Shown: one piece after another, positions 17,473 to 60,022 of the stretch
Layout: every line of letters begins with the position of its first letter
Numbering within the stretch: the stretch's first letter is position 1
From: Picochlorum sp. SENEW3
Taxonomy: Eukaryota
Assembly (NCBI GenBank): GCA_034226945.1
Contig: CP120454.1
Span: 1,302,001-1,366,000 of the forward strand
Length of the DNA: 64,000 bases
Direction of reading: 5' to 3'
The notes under the pieces: model-generated
Databases searched by the model: none
What the model saw: the letters and a program-made list of their open reading frames with translations, nothing else
What the model was told of the DNA's origin: nothing
Translations under genes and position numbers: made by a program

Positions 17473-18224
17473 ATCTCAAACTATCCTTCAAATACTACGA
17501 CTAGACTATCTACTGGACCCTGATATTGGCAAAATCTTGTCAGAACAGAATACAGTGTATTGGAATTCGGCCTGCAACGCACAACCCGAACAATCAGATG
17601 CAATAACCCCCCAAAGAGACTAACTTTATGCATTACAGACAATTACAGAGGCATGTGCCGCTTCTTGGAACATCATTTGCTGACGCCAGCACATGACAAG
17701 GCAAACCACCTAACGACGTTGCCCCTCGAAGACACTCCATACACGCCATATCGCACCAACATACCTCCCATATATTTTTTCATCATTAAATATGTATCAT
17801 ACACCATCCATATCGGTCTGTTAAGAAAGCGAGAGTAGAAACACACACATGGAGCACACCCTGCCTTGCTGACACGACTGACTTGTGTGCTGTGCCCGTC
17901 TCCCTTCCTACTATGAACTATTAAATGATTTAATAATGCAAAAGATGGATTCTTACTGCACTATTGACTCAGGATCGCCCTGCGATGCGAATCCTGCAGA
18001 AACTTCCAGCTCTGGTTGTTGCAGACATCCCATCCATGACAAACATGCCCAGAATCCCGCGCATTTTGGGTGAACACGCATTCCACACCTTTGAATGACT
18101 TTATGCATGCTATTTCGACCATAATGAGGATATAATGCTCCAATGAAGGCGGTCTAAAGACGTCTCACTTGTAAGATAGATACAAGGTCTCATCAAATGT
18201 CTTGTTCGATAGGACATGGTGTCT

Positions 18225-51781: not shown

Positions 51782-54646
51782 TTATAGTAATTGGGCAATT
51801 TTGATGGGTTTCTTCACTGCATTTGTGTATCCTTCATGGAACTTGTACAGCACAGGCATGTCCTCTGCTCTCATTTTCTTGCTGTGTGTCTGTCCCTGTG
51901 AGTTTTGTTCCGAACGGCCTCGTGTTGTCTGTTTACTCTTTAATTTGTCTAGCCAAGTCCGCTTTCGTGTCGATGTCTTCTTTTTGGACTGGGTTGATGC
52001 CTTGTTCTCTTCCAATCTCTGTGCTAGACTCACAGGAATATGTGCTGCGGTGGGTTTAGGCACCTGTGAGGGTGTACTCTGCGTCTGATGACCTTCCTGA
52101 CTTGTTTTTGTACTGCGCCGGATGCGTTCCATGTCAAGCTCGTGAGCAACCATCTGTTGTGTTGGGGCTGGTATGTCTCGAGGAGGGCATGTTTGGCCAA
52201 GCGTCTTGTTAGGGAAATTCCAGAATGTGTGGATCGGAGGGTTGAATTTGACGGCTGTATTTGACTCATCTGAATCTGGATCATCTTCCAAAGAATAGGA
52301 CACCCCAAGTGCCAGCATGGCATCTACAAGTCTTTCCAATGTCTTCTTTTCTTCCTTTGAATACAGATGCCTGGAGACCGGCCGTAAACTAGGGCTCAGA
52401 AGCCATGGAAGAAGAGGAATCGTTTCAGCTACAGCCGCTGTTTTACCAAGAGTCGCATAGGTGCTAGGGTTCATCCCCAACATCCACCTGTGCAGCATTG
52501 CTTTTCTTTCACCAAGTTCTCTTCTGGTAGCTGGAAGTGTTCTTGGCCACCTGACGGATGGATTTTCAGGTCCTGATAGGATATTGGCTATTCGCAACGT
52601 CATTGCTGGAATATATTTTCCTAGTGAGAAGTCTGCCGTCTGGGATAGCTTGCGCTGTAGCATATCAGCCATCTGCATGTTGTCTAGCACTGTTGAGGTT
52701 CTCAAGAGTGCCATATCAAAATGAATAATGGAAGGAAGGCTCTCATAGAATCCTCCAATGACAAGATCATGATCGCCAAAGTCCAGAATAGTGTTGAATA
52801 GCCTTGAACAGCGTTGGGATTCTGATTCTGGCACCTGACCAATGACTGCTGGGCCCTTCTGCATACGTAGATATACTCACAGTGATGACAATCGCGTCCC
52901 ATCCCATACAAATACATCCATACATACCTTTTGGTGCAGTAAATCTTTCCAGAGTCTAAAAGCACCAATGGTGATATCTTTCTGACCACTGCCTACTGAA
53001 GAAATGTCACTCAATCTCAACATCTTTTGCTTCTTTCCAATAAATTGCATGGTATTCAAGCATGACCGAATATCGCATTCTGTCTTCTCGATAAGAGCTC
53101 TCAATGTTGATTTTTCTGCTTTCAATTTCTCCCGCTTGCAAATGAACTGTAATCTCTCCACCAGTTTCTCTGCCGATGGGGGCCTCACATGAAATACGCG
53201 AGCCACATCCCTGAGGGGTCGCAACACAGGCGCATACAAATCATTACATATGCAAATGACGGGCCTCGTCAATGGCTTATCCTTCTTCTTCTTCCTTGAC
53301 GGCTTTCCACCTGCATCCTCCTCTTGGTGCTTGCTCCTCTTTTCCACCTTTGCTTGTGCAAGTTTTATCAGAGCAGAAACTGCACTTTTCCCCTCTCCGC
53401 CTGCAGCTACTCCATCAATTTCATCGATAATAATGCAATTAGGACGATTTTCACCGATAACAGATGTCATTTCCATGGCATTAATGACTCTAGACATCAA
53501 CTCTGGGCCACTCCTCTCATCACTGGCATTAATCTCCACAGCCTTGTACCCACAATGCCTTGCCACAATATGCGCCAAGGTTGTCTTCCCAAGACCAGGT
53601 GGACCCGCAAGGAGAATAAGCTTCTGTTCAGGCCTGAAATATGGATCCGTGTTCTCTGATGTCTTGGAAGCATCTACTGTGCCAAACACACATCTATCCC
53701 ATTGCTTCATCCACTTGACGACATCCCGATTGATCAACTCATCACTCAACAAATCCATAAAATGACGAGGAGCATATTTATCTACCCAAAGCCCAGATGT
53801 GCCAGCAGCAGACGCCTTCTGATCCTTCTTCTTCTTGTTCGTCTTCCTAGTAGTATCCTGCCCTCTACCTTGTGTTTCAGCCAACACCCGTTCAAAGTGA
53901 TCCTTTTCCACTGCGGAGAGCAACGCATCAATTTTCGTCGACAAAAGAGAGCCTTTGCTCCGCCGAAGAGCACGAGCCAGTAGACCACCTTCAGAAGTAT
54001 CATCCACATGCAATGGAGCATACACCCGCTCTCCTGACGGAGATGTCACAGTGACGTATTGTTCTGTGGCATTCATCGCATCCCTTTGAGGAGGAAGGCA
54101 CTCTCTATCCTTGATAACATCCTCCTTGACTGTTTCTGTTGTCCCAATATCCCCGTCACTCTTAGGTTCTGGTGGGAGAGGAGGAGCCTCATGCGTCGAC
54201 TCGTCTGCAGTGTTGAGGACATTTCCCGTATCATGATGAACGACATCATCATTACCATTCGCATTCGTCTCAGCTTCCCCCAAGAATCCAACATATCCAT
54301 CAACATTGCCCACATCACCGCCAATATCATCATCATCATCATCCAGCCCAATCCCATCCACCGGCTCCTCCATATCCAACAACATGTCAATATCATCCAT
54401 CTCATCAAGAGAAGGCTTCCCCTTCCCTCCTGCCACCTTGCCCGCATCCTGAGACTGTTGTTGCGAATACAAGGGCATACCGGCCACCATATCAAGCAAT
54501 TCTTCATCAACATTCTCCTTCTCTTCTTCCAGCCCCCTTCCATCACCAGTAAACCTGGGAGCAACAAGACCACCTATACCAGGAACAGCATCCAAATCCG
54601 GTCGGACATTGCCCCTCGCATTCACATCAAGACTGTCCCCGTCCAT
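51782..54646 (-). CDS. CTF18: Chromosome transmission fidelity protein 18 (RFC-like clamp loader subunit)
   Basis: LWVDKYAP, WMKQWD, GPPGLGKTTLAH, EINASDER, IDEIDG, RPVICICNDLYAP and C-terminal YKFHEGYTNAVK; intron 52859-52927. Confidence 0.93.
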
Positions 54647-55408
54647 GTCTTTTTCTTTTTCTCTCACTCTCTTTCTGCGTGTGTGATAACAACACGTCTA
54701 GAAAACCAGAAATGCCTGCTTCAAACCAACCAGTCTATGTATGTCTGTATGAGTAGACAACAGCAATTGGCTGTTGTTGTCTATCGACAGCGTCTCTGCT
54801 ACTAATGCACCACCAATACAGTAGTAAAGCCAAGGCAAATCAATAGCTTCTCAATGAATTAGCTCCACAGGACTGAGATTGCCGTTGTTGCGATACAAGC
54901 AGCTTGAATTTCAAATTCCTCCCCTTCTCAAACGCATATAGCAGTCACAATACTTTTATATACAAATGAACGTCATTCCTGAGCATTATATTTGTTAAAA
55001 GAGTGCGATCATTCAGAAGAAACAACCGATGTCTGTACTTGAAGAAATTTGAATCTGACTGGACAGAGTATTTCGGGGATGGAGTCTCATGACAACCAAA
55101 GATACGGATATATGTGTACCAATGCATCCTATTTGCCAGAGTACTGTACACATTATTGGTCTCATCAGTAGAACAATCGTTATAGCCCACCAGGGTCGTC
55201 GTCAACGGGCACGTGTCCTTTTCTTGCCCTTCTTTGGGATAAAGACACGTCACAGCCGCAGTGTGGGAGAAGAATTGATTTTTCAAGAGATAATTTATTA
55301 GATTAACGCAACGGGATAGACTGCGGTGTCATACTGGTGTAGAAACACGCTTTCCGACAAGAAGACGAAGAAGGGATTAGTCGAGAAACCTCTGGATTTG
55401 ATCGTGAG

Positions 55409-55597
55409 ATGAGTGGATACCACGGCGACGAGTATACATTGTTTGGTTATGAGATTCCATTTCCAAGAAAGGACTTGTTTATTGCTTTGGCAGCTGTGAT
55501 TGGCTTTTTACCCATAACAGTGATTTTGCATACTCTTGTGACAACTGTGTACAGATTGATTGCTGGTGATCGCCGAACGAAGAAGCACGAGGAATAG
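55409..55597 (+). CDS. 62-aa predicted single-pass membrane microprotein, unknown family
   Basis: ATG start, hydrophobic LFIALAAVIGFLPITVIL segment and charged tail RRTKKHEE; it fills otherwise gene-free space. Confidence 0.55.
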   Translation: MSGYHGDEYTLFGYEIPFPRKDLFIALAAVIGFLPITVILHTLVTTVYRLIAGDRRTKKHEE

Positions 55598-55610
55598 GAA
55601 TTTTGAATAG

Positions 55611-56987
55611 ATGATTTCTCAATTGATGGTGTTGTCACCTCGTGGTGATGTGATTATTTTGAAGGATTTCAAGGGGAATGTGTGCAAGACGTCTCCAGAA
55701 ATTCTGTTTCGAAGAATTACATTGAAAGACGCGCCTCCCGTGTTTTGCGTGGATGGAACGCAGTATCTATACATCAAAGCTGGTTCGTTGTATTGGGGTG
55801 CGACGACGAGGGAGAATGTGTCCCCATCTCTTGTATTAGAGATGCTGAATCGGCTGTTTTGGATTACCAATGATTATGTGGGGCATGTGTCCGAGGAGTC
55901 TGTTCGGAAGAATTTCGTGCTCGTTTATGAGTTATTAGATGAGATTATGGATTATGGGTTTCCGCAGAATTCGTCGACGGAGAGGCTGAAGGAGTTTATT
56001 GCCATGGAGCCTGCTGTGTCACGGCCCAAGGCTCCGCTGGCATCCATTGGGTCTGGACCAAAGGAGGTTGTCAAGTCTGTGCTGAGCACGTCGAGAACGG
56101 GAGCCAAGGAGGAAATTTTTGTAGACATTGTAGAAAAATTGACGGCGATTTTCGATGTGTCTGGACGTCTGAGGACGTCCTTTATTGTCGGGTCTGTACA
56201 GGTCAAGTCCTATCTGCATGGAAATCCAATGATTCGCCTTGGTTTATCAGAAAACTTGCTTCTTCTTTCAGATGATGTTTCGAATGATGATGGTATGCCT
56301 TTGAATTATGGATCGTTAGACGATGGGCTTGGACCAGTCGTGCTGGATACGTATTCTCTGCATGAGAGTGCTGATCAGCAGGTGTTTGCCCAGGACAGGA
56401 TACTAGAGCTGGTGCCACCAGAAGGGCATTTTTCTCTCCTGACGTATCGTAGTTCAAAGTCATTCCGTCCTCCATTTAGAATTTATCCGGCTGTTGAAGA
56501 CGATATGAATTCGGATGAGAAGATGACGCTCTACATCCGACTCTTGGCTGAATATGAACCCCGCAAGACAGCATCAGGGGTCGAGATTGTGCTACCACTT
56601 CCACCGACCGTGTCTCGAGCTCATGTAGATACGGATACACAGGATAATGAAGGTCCATTATTGTCAAAATTGACTGGTAAATCCTTCCAACAGAGCGCCG
56701 AATGGTATCCGAGAGATTCAAAATTGGTCTGGGTGTTGAGAAACCTACCAGGTGGCAGGGAACACACCCTTCGAGTACGACTCACCATTGAGCCTGGACA
56801 GGCCCACATGGTTCGACATGAAATGGGACCAATCATGGCCCATTTTGTATTGCCAGGAAAGCCGACAATGAGCGGGTTGGATGTGAAATACTTGAAAATC
56901 ATGAAGGATACATCACGGGGACAGGCCCCCTCCAGATGGTTTCGAGCTGTTGCTGTGGCAAATACGTATCTCGTTCGGACGGACTAA
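55611..56987 (+). CDS. AP4M1: Adaptor protein complex AP-4 mu subunit
   Basis: MISQLMVLSPRGD, RKNFVLVYELLDEIMDYGFPQ, EEIFVDIVE, VPPEGHF and SGLDVKYLKI motifs. Confidence 0.88.
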   Translation: MISQLMVLSPRGDVIILKDFKGNVCKTSPEILFRRITLKDAPPVFCVDGTQYLYIKAGSLYWGATTRENVSPSLVLEMLNRLFWITNDYVGHVSEESVRKNFVLVYELLDEIMDYGFPQNSSTERLKEFIAMEPAVSRPKAPLASIGSGPKEVVKSVLSTSRTGAKEEIFVDIVEKLTAIFDVSGRLRTSFIVGSVQVKSYLHGNPMIRLGLSENLLLLSDDVSNDDGMPLNYGSLDDGLGPVVLDTYSLHESADQQVFAQDRILELVPPEGHFSLLTYRSSKSFRPPFRIYPAVEDDMNSDEKMTLYIRLLAEYEPRKTASGVEIVLPLPPTVSRAHVDTDTQDNEGPLLSKLTGKSFQQSAEWYPRDSKLVWVLRNLPGGREHTLRVRLTIEPGQAHMVRHEMGPIMAHFVLPGKPTMSGLDVKYLKIMKDTSRGQAPSRWFRAVAVANTYLVRTD

Positions 56988-57037
56988 GAATCTACATATA
57001 TCATGTAAAATGTATAATAATAAATAAATGTGTGTGA

Positions 57038-57466
57038 TCATGCATCATCTCCACCTGAGAAGAATTGCTCAGTGTGCTCTGGATGCTTCTCCAAGCACTT
57101 TTGAAACTTTTCAAAATGCTCTATGCAATCGTATCCTTTGACTTCAGGATGCGTGCTCTTCATAAAACAACTAAACGAATCTACGAATGAATCTTTACAC
57201 GGTCCTTGCATCATATCCTCTGCATCATAGAGTCATGTGTCATAGGACATGGAACAAGAGGAGACAGCATGCCATCATGATGATGGTTGTTTCCTTTCAT
57301 CATGCAATGCAGTAACATTACTCCGAATCGTACCCACACAAGGACACTCCAGAGCCATTTCAATCTGTTTATCTATATCATGTGGGTGTGCTTCTGCCGC
57401 CTTGTCAATTTCTTCTGCAAGGCTGTCAAAAACCCCACCCTCTTGTTCTTCTTGTTCTGAAGCCAT
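57038..57466 (-). CDS. MIA40: Mitochondrial intermembrane-space import oxidoreductase Mia40
   Basis: ALECPCV, intron 57220-57333, then EDMMQGPCKDSFVDSFSCFMKS...GYDCIEHFEKFQKCLEKHP: a CPC motif plus twin CX9C. Confidence 0.92.
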
Positions 57467-57687
57467 GATCGTTGTCACTGATCACACAGACGTCCAGAAT
57501 TCTACTGGATCATCATATTACATAAAGTATACTGCGAATTACAATTGCGGAAAAGCATTGCACAATACTGAATTTTAGGCCTACTCAAAAAACGTCTCAA
57601 TTAAGAAACTTTTCAACCAATGCGATCCACTTGTTGTTATTACATGAACTGCGCACATGTCTCATCACAATAAAAAATTGTATCAAA

Positions 57688-58716
57688 ATGCAGCAAACTA
57701 GAGGAGTATCGCCGGCAAGTGCGTGCCAGCCCAGGTTGCAAAGTGTGGCTGTCCGTCACAATTGGCCTTCAGGTGCACGTCGACAGTGGAGAATACAGTC
57801 ATCGGACCTCGATGAGATTGATCCTATGACTGGAGAAGTCATCGAAGGGACTGCTCGTGCGAGAACTGCCTCGAATACAGTATCCACTGGACGTTTCACC
57901 CATGCTTACAGAGGAAGTGCTGACAGCAATGCTTCATTGCCAGTGGTGTGCGCTCATGGTGTCGGTTCTTCCAGTTACTCGTTTAGAAAGACTGTCAACT
58001 TGTTAGAAAAGGATGGTGTTCAGGCAATGGCGTTTGATTTCCTCGGGCATGGTGCATCAGATCACCCGTCATCATCAGAGTTCTCATACACACAGCATGC
58101 GTACATTTCAGAACTACAGAAACTCATGGAAACGTTATACGGCGATACACCCGTAGTACTTATTACTCATGGATATATCCTAGGGCAATATGCCATGTTG
58201 TACGCAGCGAGGAATCCCGATAGAATTGCCAAACTGGTGACACTGAATGTCCCACTTGGCCTCAAATCAAAGCTACGACCAGAATTGGCTCAGTACAAGA
58301 GTCCAATACCGTTTTTAAAACCAAAACAAAACTCTCCTTTCGATGGACGATTCTATAATGCTGCCGGTGGACCGTACGCACTGGCTGCGACAGATGCAGA
58401 TGCATATAATGCTCCATACGAGCAGTCACCAAACAATGCCTCTGCCGCCATTTGGCACACCATGGAGAACTGCGATTGGGAGGCTTTAAAAAAGCAGGTA
58501 GATGAAGAATTCGCGTCATTTCAAAAGCCGACATTATTGATTCATGGGAATTCTGATTCCTTCTTGGATGTCAAGGGTACTCTGGATTGGTTGGAGGAGA
58601 AGCGGACCAATATGAAAATGTGCTATGGAATAGAAGCAAAGCTCGGCCACATGCCACAGGAAGACTATCCAGAGGCCATCCACCCAGTGATACTTGAATA
58701 CATTACGTCAACGTAA
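57688..58716 (+). CDS. Alpha/beta hydrolase-fold protein (haloalkane dehalogenase-like), probably plastid-targeted
   Basis: HGVGSSSYSFR, FDFLGHGASDHP and GHMPQEDYPE motifs; transit-like N-terminus. Confidence 0.85.
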   Translation: MQQTRGVSPASACQPRLQSVAVRHNWPSGARRQWRIQSSDLDEIDPMTGEVIEGTARARTASNTVSTGRFTHAYRGSADSNASLPVVCAHGVGSSSYSFRKTVNLLEKDGVQAMAFDFLGHGASDHPSSSEFSYTQHAYISELQKLMETLYGDTPVVLITHGYILGQYAMLYAARNPDRIAKLVTLNVPLGLKSKLRPELAQYKSPIPFLKPKQNSPFDGRFYNAAGGPYALAATDADAYNAPYEQSPNNASAAIWHTMENCDWEALKKQVDEEFASFQKPTLLIHGNSDSFLDVKGTLDWLEEKRTNMKMCYGIEAKLGHMPQEDYPEAIHPVILEYITST

Positions 58717-58726
58717 TGTCAATATC

Positions 58727-60022
58727 TTACATGTGAACTCGTTTTCCCGAATGATGTGTAACAATCAGCGGATCATATCTCAGCCGAGATGGATCAATTT
58801 CTATATTCTTCTCCGAGGATATCGTCCTCAGATGTTCATCAATAATCTTCTGTGTCACAGAAATAATATGATCTCCTTTCCAATACTTGATCAAAGACAG
58901 CCCTTCCAACGTCTTGACAATATCTTCCGTCCGTATGGACGTCCTATCTGAAATATCTTTAATACTCATACTATGCTTGCAGTCTCGAAGCGTCTCCAGT
59001 ATCACCCTCGTCCAGTACGAGCGATACGACACAGCTCCTAAATCAGACAAGGGCCTCTCTGGACTCCCCACTCGACCCTCCTTTTTGGACAATTCATAGG
59101 AAAAGGCAATCAAAAATCGACCATACCCCTTCCTCTGATACGGCGGCAGAATCAAAATACACGCCAAATTATTCCCTTCCGCTGAATCCTTCTCCTTTGA
59201 AAAATACCCAACCACATGATGCCCATCCTTATCCACCTCACACAAGACATAAAACAGGAATGGATCCACATCATAATACAGCGTCTTGTGGTCCAAAAAC
59301 AGCTTGGACAACAGGCACAAATTCTGACAGTACACCTTTGCCTTCTTCCCATCTACTTCAAACATGGATATCTGAGGATTCGTATACGTCCCAGCAAGCG
59401 CCGTCCCTGCCCTCGCAGGAGACCTATAAATCTCATCCCCAGGAGGACACTTGAGCGTGCACTTTGCCATGTGCCGCAACAGCGTCTTCTTCTTCCTGAA
59501 ATACTTCAACGTATACTCACATATATATAACTTCTGACAAGACGCATGCGGCTCTGGATACGGAGAAAAATACCACGTATCAATCTCATGCCTCCCAAGC
59601 TCAATCACCTGAACATTCTTCACCTTGGTCTTCTCCTGATGCTCCTTCTCCAAGTACTGATCCAGAGGAGGCAGCTCCTCCACCGACGGACTCAGATGAT
59701 TAATCTCAGCATACTGTCGCTTCTGTCGACGTGTCATCTTCTGATTCTGCATGCTCGTATCCTCCAACCCAGACGCCGATCCCCCCGAACCCACCCTCGG
59801 AAGACTCTTCGCCACAGACACAACATTCGACGCTGTAATCCACTCATCCAACCGCTTATCCAACTCATTGTAATGAATATAGTACATAACACCGTACTTT
59901 GAGTCCATCCGTTGCTCAATAATCTCGCCGAGGTGCTCTTGATTATCAAACGTCGCTGTACACATCACAGACGTCCCAATCTCCAAGGTACCCTCAGGAA
60001 CAACCTGCACAGAATCCACCAT
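58727..60022 (-). CDS. MYST histone acetyltransferase (HAM1/Esa1/Tip60 type)
   Basis: Tudor-knot (YYIHY...KRLDEW), TWYFSPYP, LFLDHKTLYYDV, LACILILPPYQRKGYG and GSPERPLSDLG motifs. Confidence 0.95.
   Translation of the reverse strand: MVDSVQVVPEGTLEIGTSVMCTATFDNQEHLGEIIEQRMDSKYGVMYYIHYNELDKRLDEWITASNVVSVAKSLPRVGSGGSASGLEDTSMQNQKMTRRQKRQYAEINHLSPSVEELPPLDQYLEKEHQEKTKVKNVQVIELGRHEIDTWYFSPYPEPHASCQKLYICEYTLKYFRKKKTLLRHMAKCTLKCPPGDEIYRSPARAGTALAGTYTNPQISMFEVDGKKAKVYCQNLCLLSKLFLDHKTLYYDVDPFLFYVLCEVDKDGHHVVGYFSKEKDSAEGNNLACILILPPYQRKGYGRFLIAFSYELSKKEGRVGSPERPLSDLGAVSYRSYWTRVILETLRDCKHSMSIKDISDRTSIRTEDIVKTLEGLSLIKYWKGDHIISVTQKIIDEHLRTISSEKNIEIDPSRLRYDPLIVTHHSGKRVHM

Follow-up and report, generated by a model that had tools for sequence, protein, structure and literature searches.

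The window, as we call the whole 64,000-nt stretch of the Picochlorum sp. SENEW3 genome analysed here (contig CP120454.1, positions 1,302,001 to 1,366,000), contains a short open reading frame (ORF1) immediately upstream of the gene for the AP-4 complex subunit mu (AP4M). Judged by sequence comparison, ORF1 is a real, conserved protein-coding gene, whose product belongs to a family of single-pass membrane proteins of 55–62 aa, and its linkage to AP4M is old. The microprotein family is undescribed; sharing an mRNA, as ORF1 probably does with AP4M, is a known algal arrangement. In the explanation that we favour, by a modest degree of confidence, AP4M would be produced mainly from a two-ORF mRNA via leaky scanning. 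ORF1 would be the first ORF of a Chlorellales transcription unit that extends through AP4M and terminates downstream; some of the scanning ribosomes would initiate at ORF1, while those passing it would meet almost no AUG before initiating at AP4M. The ORF1 protein would be a small subunit or regulator of an ER or cis-Golgi membrane complex, with its N-terminus in the lumen and its C-terminus in the cytosol. Single mRNA molecules carrying both ORFs, translation of both, leaky scanning and the localisation are what we infer from the evidence given below. The features of the locus are collected in Table 1.

Table 1. Features of the ORF1-AP4M locus and its surroundings (positions in the window)
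Feature	Position	Strand	Remarks
Divergent RFC1-like AAA ATPase, CTF18 by synteny, first long exon	52877..54646	-	
Probable 5' leader	55146..55408	+	No ATG; start approximate; RNA-type contigs of three studies start at 55146-55206
Donor-like GTGAG just 5' of the ORF1 start	55404..55408	+	Possible 207-nt leader intron with AG 55609-55610; not observed
ORF1, 62-aa single-pass membrane microprotein	55409..55597	+	LFGY-x-IPFP motif, one helix, basic tail
Single internal ATG of ORF1, opening a 16-codon out-of-frame ORF, weak context	55449..55499	+	Absent in L003, L004 and L008
Transmembrane segment, residues 23-41, predicted N-lumen/C-cytosol	55475..55531	+	Hydropathy, charge
C-terminal KKHEE, the Lys(-3) family tail shifted by one residue	55580..55594	+	
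Inter-ORF gap, 13 nt	55598..55610	+	31, 30 and 5 nt in relatives; frame not kept
ORF2, AP-4 complex subunit mu (AP4M), 458 aa, intronless here	55611..56987	+	Pfam, homologs
TGTAA polyadenylation-signal motif, the only one of the unit	57004..57008	+	

The original prediction placed the stop of a 62-codon ORF 13 nt before the AP-4 mu start on the same strand, with a single hydrophobic segment in the small ORF and an AG immediately 5' of the AP4M ATG, and all of this was confirmed; the mean hydropathy of the segment is 2.46. The AP4M product matches the Pfam family Adap_comp_sub (E 1e-43), and its nearest proteins are those of Chlorellales. It lacks a short WDG-x-G segment that is present in most relatives (around 55720-55730, residues 37–39). 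The gap was also correctly described as free of TGTAA, the sole plus-strand copy of this motif in 54601-57300 lying past the AP4M stop; its absence is weak evidence, because TGTAA is present within 300 nt of the stop in only 55 of the 110 long ORFs. The spacing of at least about 130 nt that had been claimed for other tandem genes agrees with gaps of 131 and 154 nt; the smaller gaps present, of 12–79 nt, look like those between exon pieces. The claim that there is no room for a promoter overlooked a possible promoter within ORF1. The geometry as such is not rare: across 264 kb of the genome, 20 ATG-started ORFs of 40–150 aa end at most 40 nt from where one of 110 long ORFs has its first ATG; of these 20 small ORFs, just two contain no more than one internal ATG. 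ORF1 stands above chance because it is conserved. An arrangement of like geometry was noticed elsewhere in the window, where 8 nt separate the end of a 50-codon ORF devoid of internal ATGs (17481-17633, minus strand) from the 880-aa ORF that follows it.

A word-seeded protein search yielded one relative of ORF1 only, a profile search gave 40 matches, and a full HMMER scan gave 36, of which 35 were genuine (P0131 was dropped as a spurious repeat protein). The family set was built from 94 candidates, 92 of which match the profile (P0196 was dropped), and comprises 57 members after dereplication at 85%. The window's own genome (13.85 Mb, 14 contigs) contains one match. Residues G13, P17 and P35 are invariant in the 35 aligned members. 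In all six pairs formed by the window and three relatives, pN (0.29–0.39) was below pS (0.64–0.86), and third codon positions were the least conserved. Comparison of dN/dS and synteny, proposed earlier as a check, came out in favour of purifying selection on ORF1, with adjacency to AP4M kept in Chlorellales. The AlphaFold model of ORF1 has a helix at residues 20–52, and the net charge is -1 before and +2 after the transmembrane segment, a pattern common to all seven members scored. Pfam assigned no family to the ORF1 of the window and gave only eight weak matches, each confined to a single member, among the 35. A PDB sequence search returned chance matches of the helix only (best E 0.037), two ESM Atlas queries reached 0.83 at best with no family, and a fold search with the 62-residue model gave no Foldseek match and a best Z of 4.0, which is uninformative for a single helix. 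Scanning P0132 and P0045 against viral contigs produced no match.

Several variants were seen within the family. In 19 of the 57 members (P0124, P0127, P0129, P0130, P0132, P0141-P0145 and others) PMP replaces PFP, which introduces a conserved internal Met. PFP is found in every AP4M-linked copy seen, and in a rough tree the PMP members cluster apart from the AP4M-linked ones; they may not be first ORFs. An internal in-frame Met is present in Chlorella ORF1, which counts against the explanation that we favour. In P0001 and P0205, from related strains, an upstream in-frame ATG gives a 90-aa form. Such an N-terminally longer ORF1 was rejected for the window, where the corresponding sequence lacks an ATG and is not in frame, and was taken as leader.

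Among 13 metagenome AP4M loci, ORF1 was found just 5' of AP4M in seven, that is, in all those with at least 450 nt of upstream sequence; the other six have short upstream sequence, start inside the gene or encode distant mu subunits. The seven linked loci represent three lineages, with ORF1-AP4M gaps of 31, 30 and 5 nt. Moreover, ORF1 is fused onto AP4M in GenBank models of 3/120 AP4M homologs and 2/7 further ones (P0021, P0213, P0041, P0215 and P0044), which come from Chlorella ohadii, C. sorokiniana, Auxenochlorella protothecoides and Prototheca wickerhamii. The source name of P0215 is AP-2 mu. As the fusion junctions vary by model, removing either the ORF1 tail or the conserved AP4M start, and as the curated Auxenochlorella AP4M4 (P0214) begins at its own AP4M Met, the fused models are probably annotation errors, in which gene finders recorded the adjacency. 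A real fusion, with ORF1 spliced in frame to yield a membrane-anchored AP-4 mu, would account for the five fused database entries, which come from four species; we nevertheless consider it hardly credible, given that, besides the differing junctions and the curated start, gaps of 13, 31, 30 and 5 nt keep no frame, no joint appears in the sequencing runs considered below, and the conserved Lys(-3) tail requires a free C-terminus. A fusion by stop read-through or frameshift was likewise tried and ruled out, as the gaps keep no frame. The Chlamydomonas AP4M4 gene, listed as monocistronic, has a 229-nt leader that contains no AUG, so the arrangement apparently does not reach Chlamydomonas.

A wider block of genes surrounds the pair, consisting of the CTF18-like gene, ORF1, AP4M, a small Cys-motif gene, an alpha/beta-hydrolase-like gene and an acetyltransferase-like gene (52877-60022). 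By eye, from ORF starts, this block from CTF18 to the acetyltransferase recurs wholly or partly in the metagenome loci L003, L004 and L008. The Auxenochlorella gene-id order in the available portion of the genome paper is CTF18, AP4M4, the unnamed 28580 and HAT5, where UTEX250_A10.28580 may be either ORF1 or a downstream gene.

Transcription across the locus was assessed with four of the 19 listed runs, all of which are contigs and none of which is recorded as RNA; contig depths were not counted as evidence. The loose end of an X1 contig at 57220 matches 57335-57363, on the other side of a 114-nt GT-AG intron in a neighbouring gene, and for this reason X1 is regarded as spliced RNA of a close relative; the RNA status of X1 comes from this splice junction only, and that of X5 and X9 is a guess. 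The neighbouring gene has two exons and a CPC motif (57038-57466, minus strand; the intron spliced in X1 is at 57220-57333), and we take it to be Mia40-like. Contigs of X1 tile 55166-56998, one of them (55449-56998) spanning the gap unspliced, and a contig of X9 (55146-55805) bridges ORF1 and AP4M. Depth in the probable DNA run X2 extends further upstream than the starts of the RNA-type contigs, which is a weak hint. P0169 (complete ORF1) and P0211 (complete AP4M) match the two halves of the fused C. sorokiniana model exactly and are each recorded on a JGI contig of 2,421 nt; we take these records to be the same, so that both proteins are probably encoded on one spliced contig. That a two-ORF mRNA exists is highly probable, the contigs showing unspliced RNA across ORF1, the gap and AP4M rather than single molecules.

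The runs also bear on splicing of the leader. It had been suggested that removal of ORF1 as a 5' UTR intron would speak against a bicistron, and no splice joint across ORF1 or the gap was present in any of the four runs, with the reservation that rare isoforms may drop out of contigs. If ORF1 lay in an alternatively spliced leader intron, its retention would give the microprotein and its removal AP4M; the GTGAG at 55404 together with the AG at 55609-55610 would excise the whole of ORF1, and the short leader of Auxenochlorella AP4M4 could be a spliced one. However, X1 is unbroken over both sites, position 55610 is A in X1 and X9, which thus lack the acceptor AG of the window, and none of the three relatives has an AG directly 5' of the ATG, though other AGs are nearby. 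Alternative splicing is improbable on these grounds.

The sequence between the two starts is strongly depleted in AUG, with one observed and 12.7 expected (768 nt, four loci), and in 264 kb of the genome only 5 of 110 long ORFs have as few ATGs in their first 201 nt. The nearest ATG 5' of the ORF1 start is 287 nt away. Such depletion agrees with what leaky scanning predicts (PMC11892635, in excerpt), but a shorter AP4M mRNA that uses ORF1 as its leader would predict it just as well. Start contexts fit leaky scanning less well. The ORF1 start has a purine at -3 in 4/4 loci and G at +4 in 2/4 and is not consistently weak, while the AP4M start of the window is mediocre, with T at -3; in a crude matrix derived from this genome, the ORF1 start scored at the 6th percentile and the AP4M start at the 19th, whereas in relatives the ORF1 start is as strong as or stronger than that of AP4M by the -3/+4 rule. 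RNA folding of the leader is not unusual (z 0.12), and an Rfam search gave two sub-threshold chance matches only. The leader here is apparently at least 200 nt long, whereas the bicistrons of Auxenochlorella have a median leader of 54 nt in the excerpted text of PMC11892635, and Auxenochlorella AP4M4 (UTEX250_A10.28575.1), placed in the monocistronic set, has a 44-nt leader with no AUG. The earlier claim that both proteins come from one mRNA by leaky scanning is thus supported in part, in that ORF1 is conserved, syntenic, AUG-depleted and bridged to AP4M by RNA-type contigs; it is weakened by the purine at -3 of all four ORF1 starts, the T at -3 of AP4M and the Auxenochlorella leader.

A second transcription start inside ORF1 would explain both the 44-nt leader and the AUG depletion. 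Under this alternative, that of an incompletely bicistronic locus, a long mRNA would give mainly the microprotein, and a shorter one, transcribed from a promoter inside ORF1, would give AP4M. It would suit the IsoSeq-based Auxenochlorella model, the absence of the locus from lists of exclusively bicistronic genes and the fairly strong ORF1 contexts, and the genome paper, in the portion available, describes internal promoters as frequent in Auxenochlorella. On the other hand, the RNA-type contigs of close relatives run unbroken from well 5' of ORF1 (X9 from 55146 to 55805, X1 from 55166 to 56998), albeit contigs cannot show starts, and the 44-nt leader may come from a model shortened at its 5' end. 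We regard two starts as unlikely, yet as the strongest of the alternatives. Whether the bicistron is the exclusive source of AP4M is in doubt, and in Auxenochlorella the short leader argues against exclusivity.

Within a single mRNA, AP4M could also be made by reinitiation after ORF1 termination, aided by the gap of 5–31 nt. The very short gaps and the non-weak ORF1 contexts accord with this, as does the lack of unusual RNA structure hinting at internal entry, and reinitiation was not fully excluded by the authors of PMC11892635 in the passages available. The AUG depletion, however, covers all of ORF1 and not just its end, reinitiation is most efficient after ORFs only a few codons long, and reporter experiments in Auxenochlorella spoke for leaky scanning (same excerpts). 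The chance that reinitiation is the main route is accordingly small, and leaky scanning from a two-ORF mRNA is retained as the preferred reading.

AP-4 acts at the trans-Golgi network, and its cargo or accessory proteins would be expected to carry a conserved tyrosine sorting motif on the cytosolic side. No such motif was found in the 35-member alignment: YTLF of the window is predicted to face the lumen, and other members do not conserve its Tyr. It is therefore gene position that ties the microprotein to AP-4. The tails of the family suggest another compartment. Lys occurs at -3 in 44 of the 57 members, at -5 in 31, and at -4 and -2 in three each, and 38/57 tails are of the KxKxx, KKxx or KxD/E type; the members are related, so these counts are not independent, and several of the 13 members without Lys at -3, which by eye resemble read-through into an intron, were left in the count. 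In the window the tail KKHEE has His at -3 and Lys only at -5 and -4 and thus falls outside the dilysine/KxD/E rule; it is one residue longer than KKxx and identical in all six members of the window's cluster. Key determinants of COPI binding are Lys at -3 and a free C-terminus, and a KKxxx peptide similar to the window tail did not bind beta'-COP (PMC3521961, in excerpt). In plants, KxD/E is a COPI-binding Golgi signal (PMC8946003, in excerpt).

The dilysine and KxD/E tails point to an ER or cis-Golgi protein rather than a partner of AP-4, and residence of the family in one of these compartments is likely, as far as tails can tell. The suggestion that the microprotein is an unrecognised trafficking factor was half right at best: the tail is suggestive of a COPI-retrieved ER/cis-Golgi membrane protein, either cargo or subunit, but the tie to AP-4 is one of gene position only. 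The two proteins are probably co-expressed without being partners. More speculatively, and with rather little confidence, the microprotein could be a secretory-pathway factor whose dose is tied to that of AP-4 mu through one mRNA and which is kept across Chlorellales for a shared route, for instance as a COPI-recycled escort or complex subunit for AP-4 cargo, the family perhaps also supplying the first ORF of a different Chlamydomonas bicistron. Small ER subunits of the OST4 type resemble the family in being tiny and single-pass, in their lysine tail and in a His close to where the helix ends. None of 35 family members matched Pfam Ost4 at E<=1, and this genome's best Ost4 match, itself weak, is on another contig.

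These results define a family of small membrane proteins with a clear and testable sorting signal, and a conserved gene that has been missed or fused to AP4M by annotation in at least four Chlorellales species. Because ORF1 is fused in gene models, several AP4M entries in databases bear what is probably a spurious membrane anchor. With a first start that is not weak, the locus is a naturally occurring candidate bicistron on which the generality of leaky scanning can be tested, and it is useful for relating two-start loci to true bicistrons. Since targeted editing works in Auxenochlorella, the microprotein gene is open to knockout there.

Full-text literature searches, covering few subscription journals, found no description of the locus or the microprotein. 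Nuclear bicistrons of green algae have been described (Gallaher 2021, PMC7896298; Duenas 2025, PMC11892635; both in excerpt). The AP4M4 ids are absent from both bicistron lists in the accessible part of Duenas 2025 (PMC11892635), including the 43 Auxenochlorella bicistronic loci, and no AP-4 or adaptin entry was found in the accessible part of Gallaher 2021 (PMC7896298); the remaining supplement parts of these papers may list the locus by an id alone. Compared with bicistrons as portrayed in these excerpts, ORF1-AP4M shares a short first ORF and a short gap (the medians in Auxenochlorella are 291 nt for the first ORF and 40 nt for the gap; PMC11892635), few AUGs before the second ORF, conserved colinearity and misannotation by gene finders, and several of the first ORFs listed there encode small membrane proteins. 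It differs in the context of ORF1, which is not consistently weak, in an apparently long leader, and in that AP4M of Auxenochlorella and of Chlamydomonas is listed as monocistronic in the same excerpts. With COPI cargo of the dilysine or KxD/E type the family shares a single helix and a cytosolic basic tail with Lys fixed at -3 and often Lys at -5 or an acid at -1; unlike such cargo, it has no Pfam, PDB or Atlas family match, and its member in the window has Lys at -5 and -4 only. Similar in predicted architecture is the Chlamydomonas bicistronic first ORF Cre01.g800042, which, in the excerpted text of PMC11892635, is 59 aa long, predicted to be ER-located and to have residues 1–19 outside, 20–45 in the membrane and 46–59 in the cytosol, and its start-context strings suggest a similar Gly/His-rich N-terminus. 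Its partner is Cre01.g013200 and not AP4M; by predicted topology and location, Cre01.g800042 is a possible homolog of ORF1.
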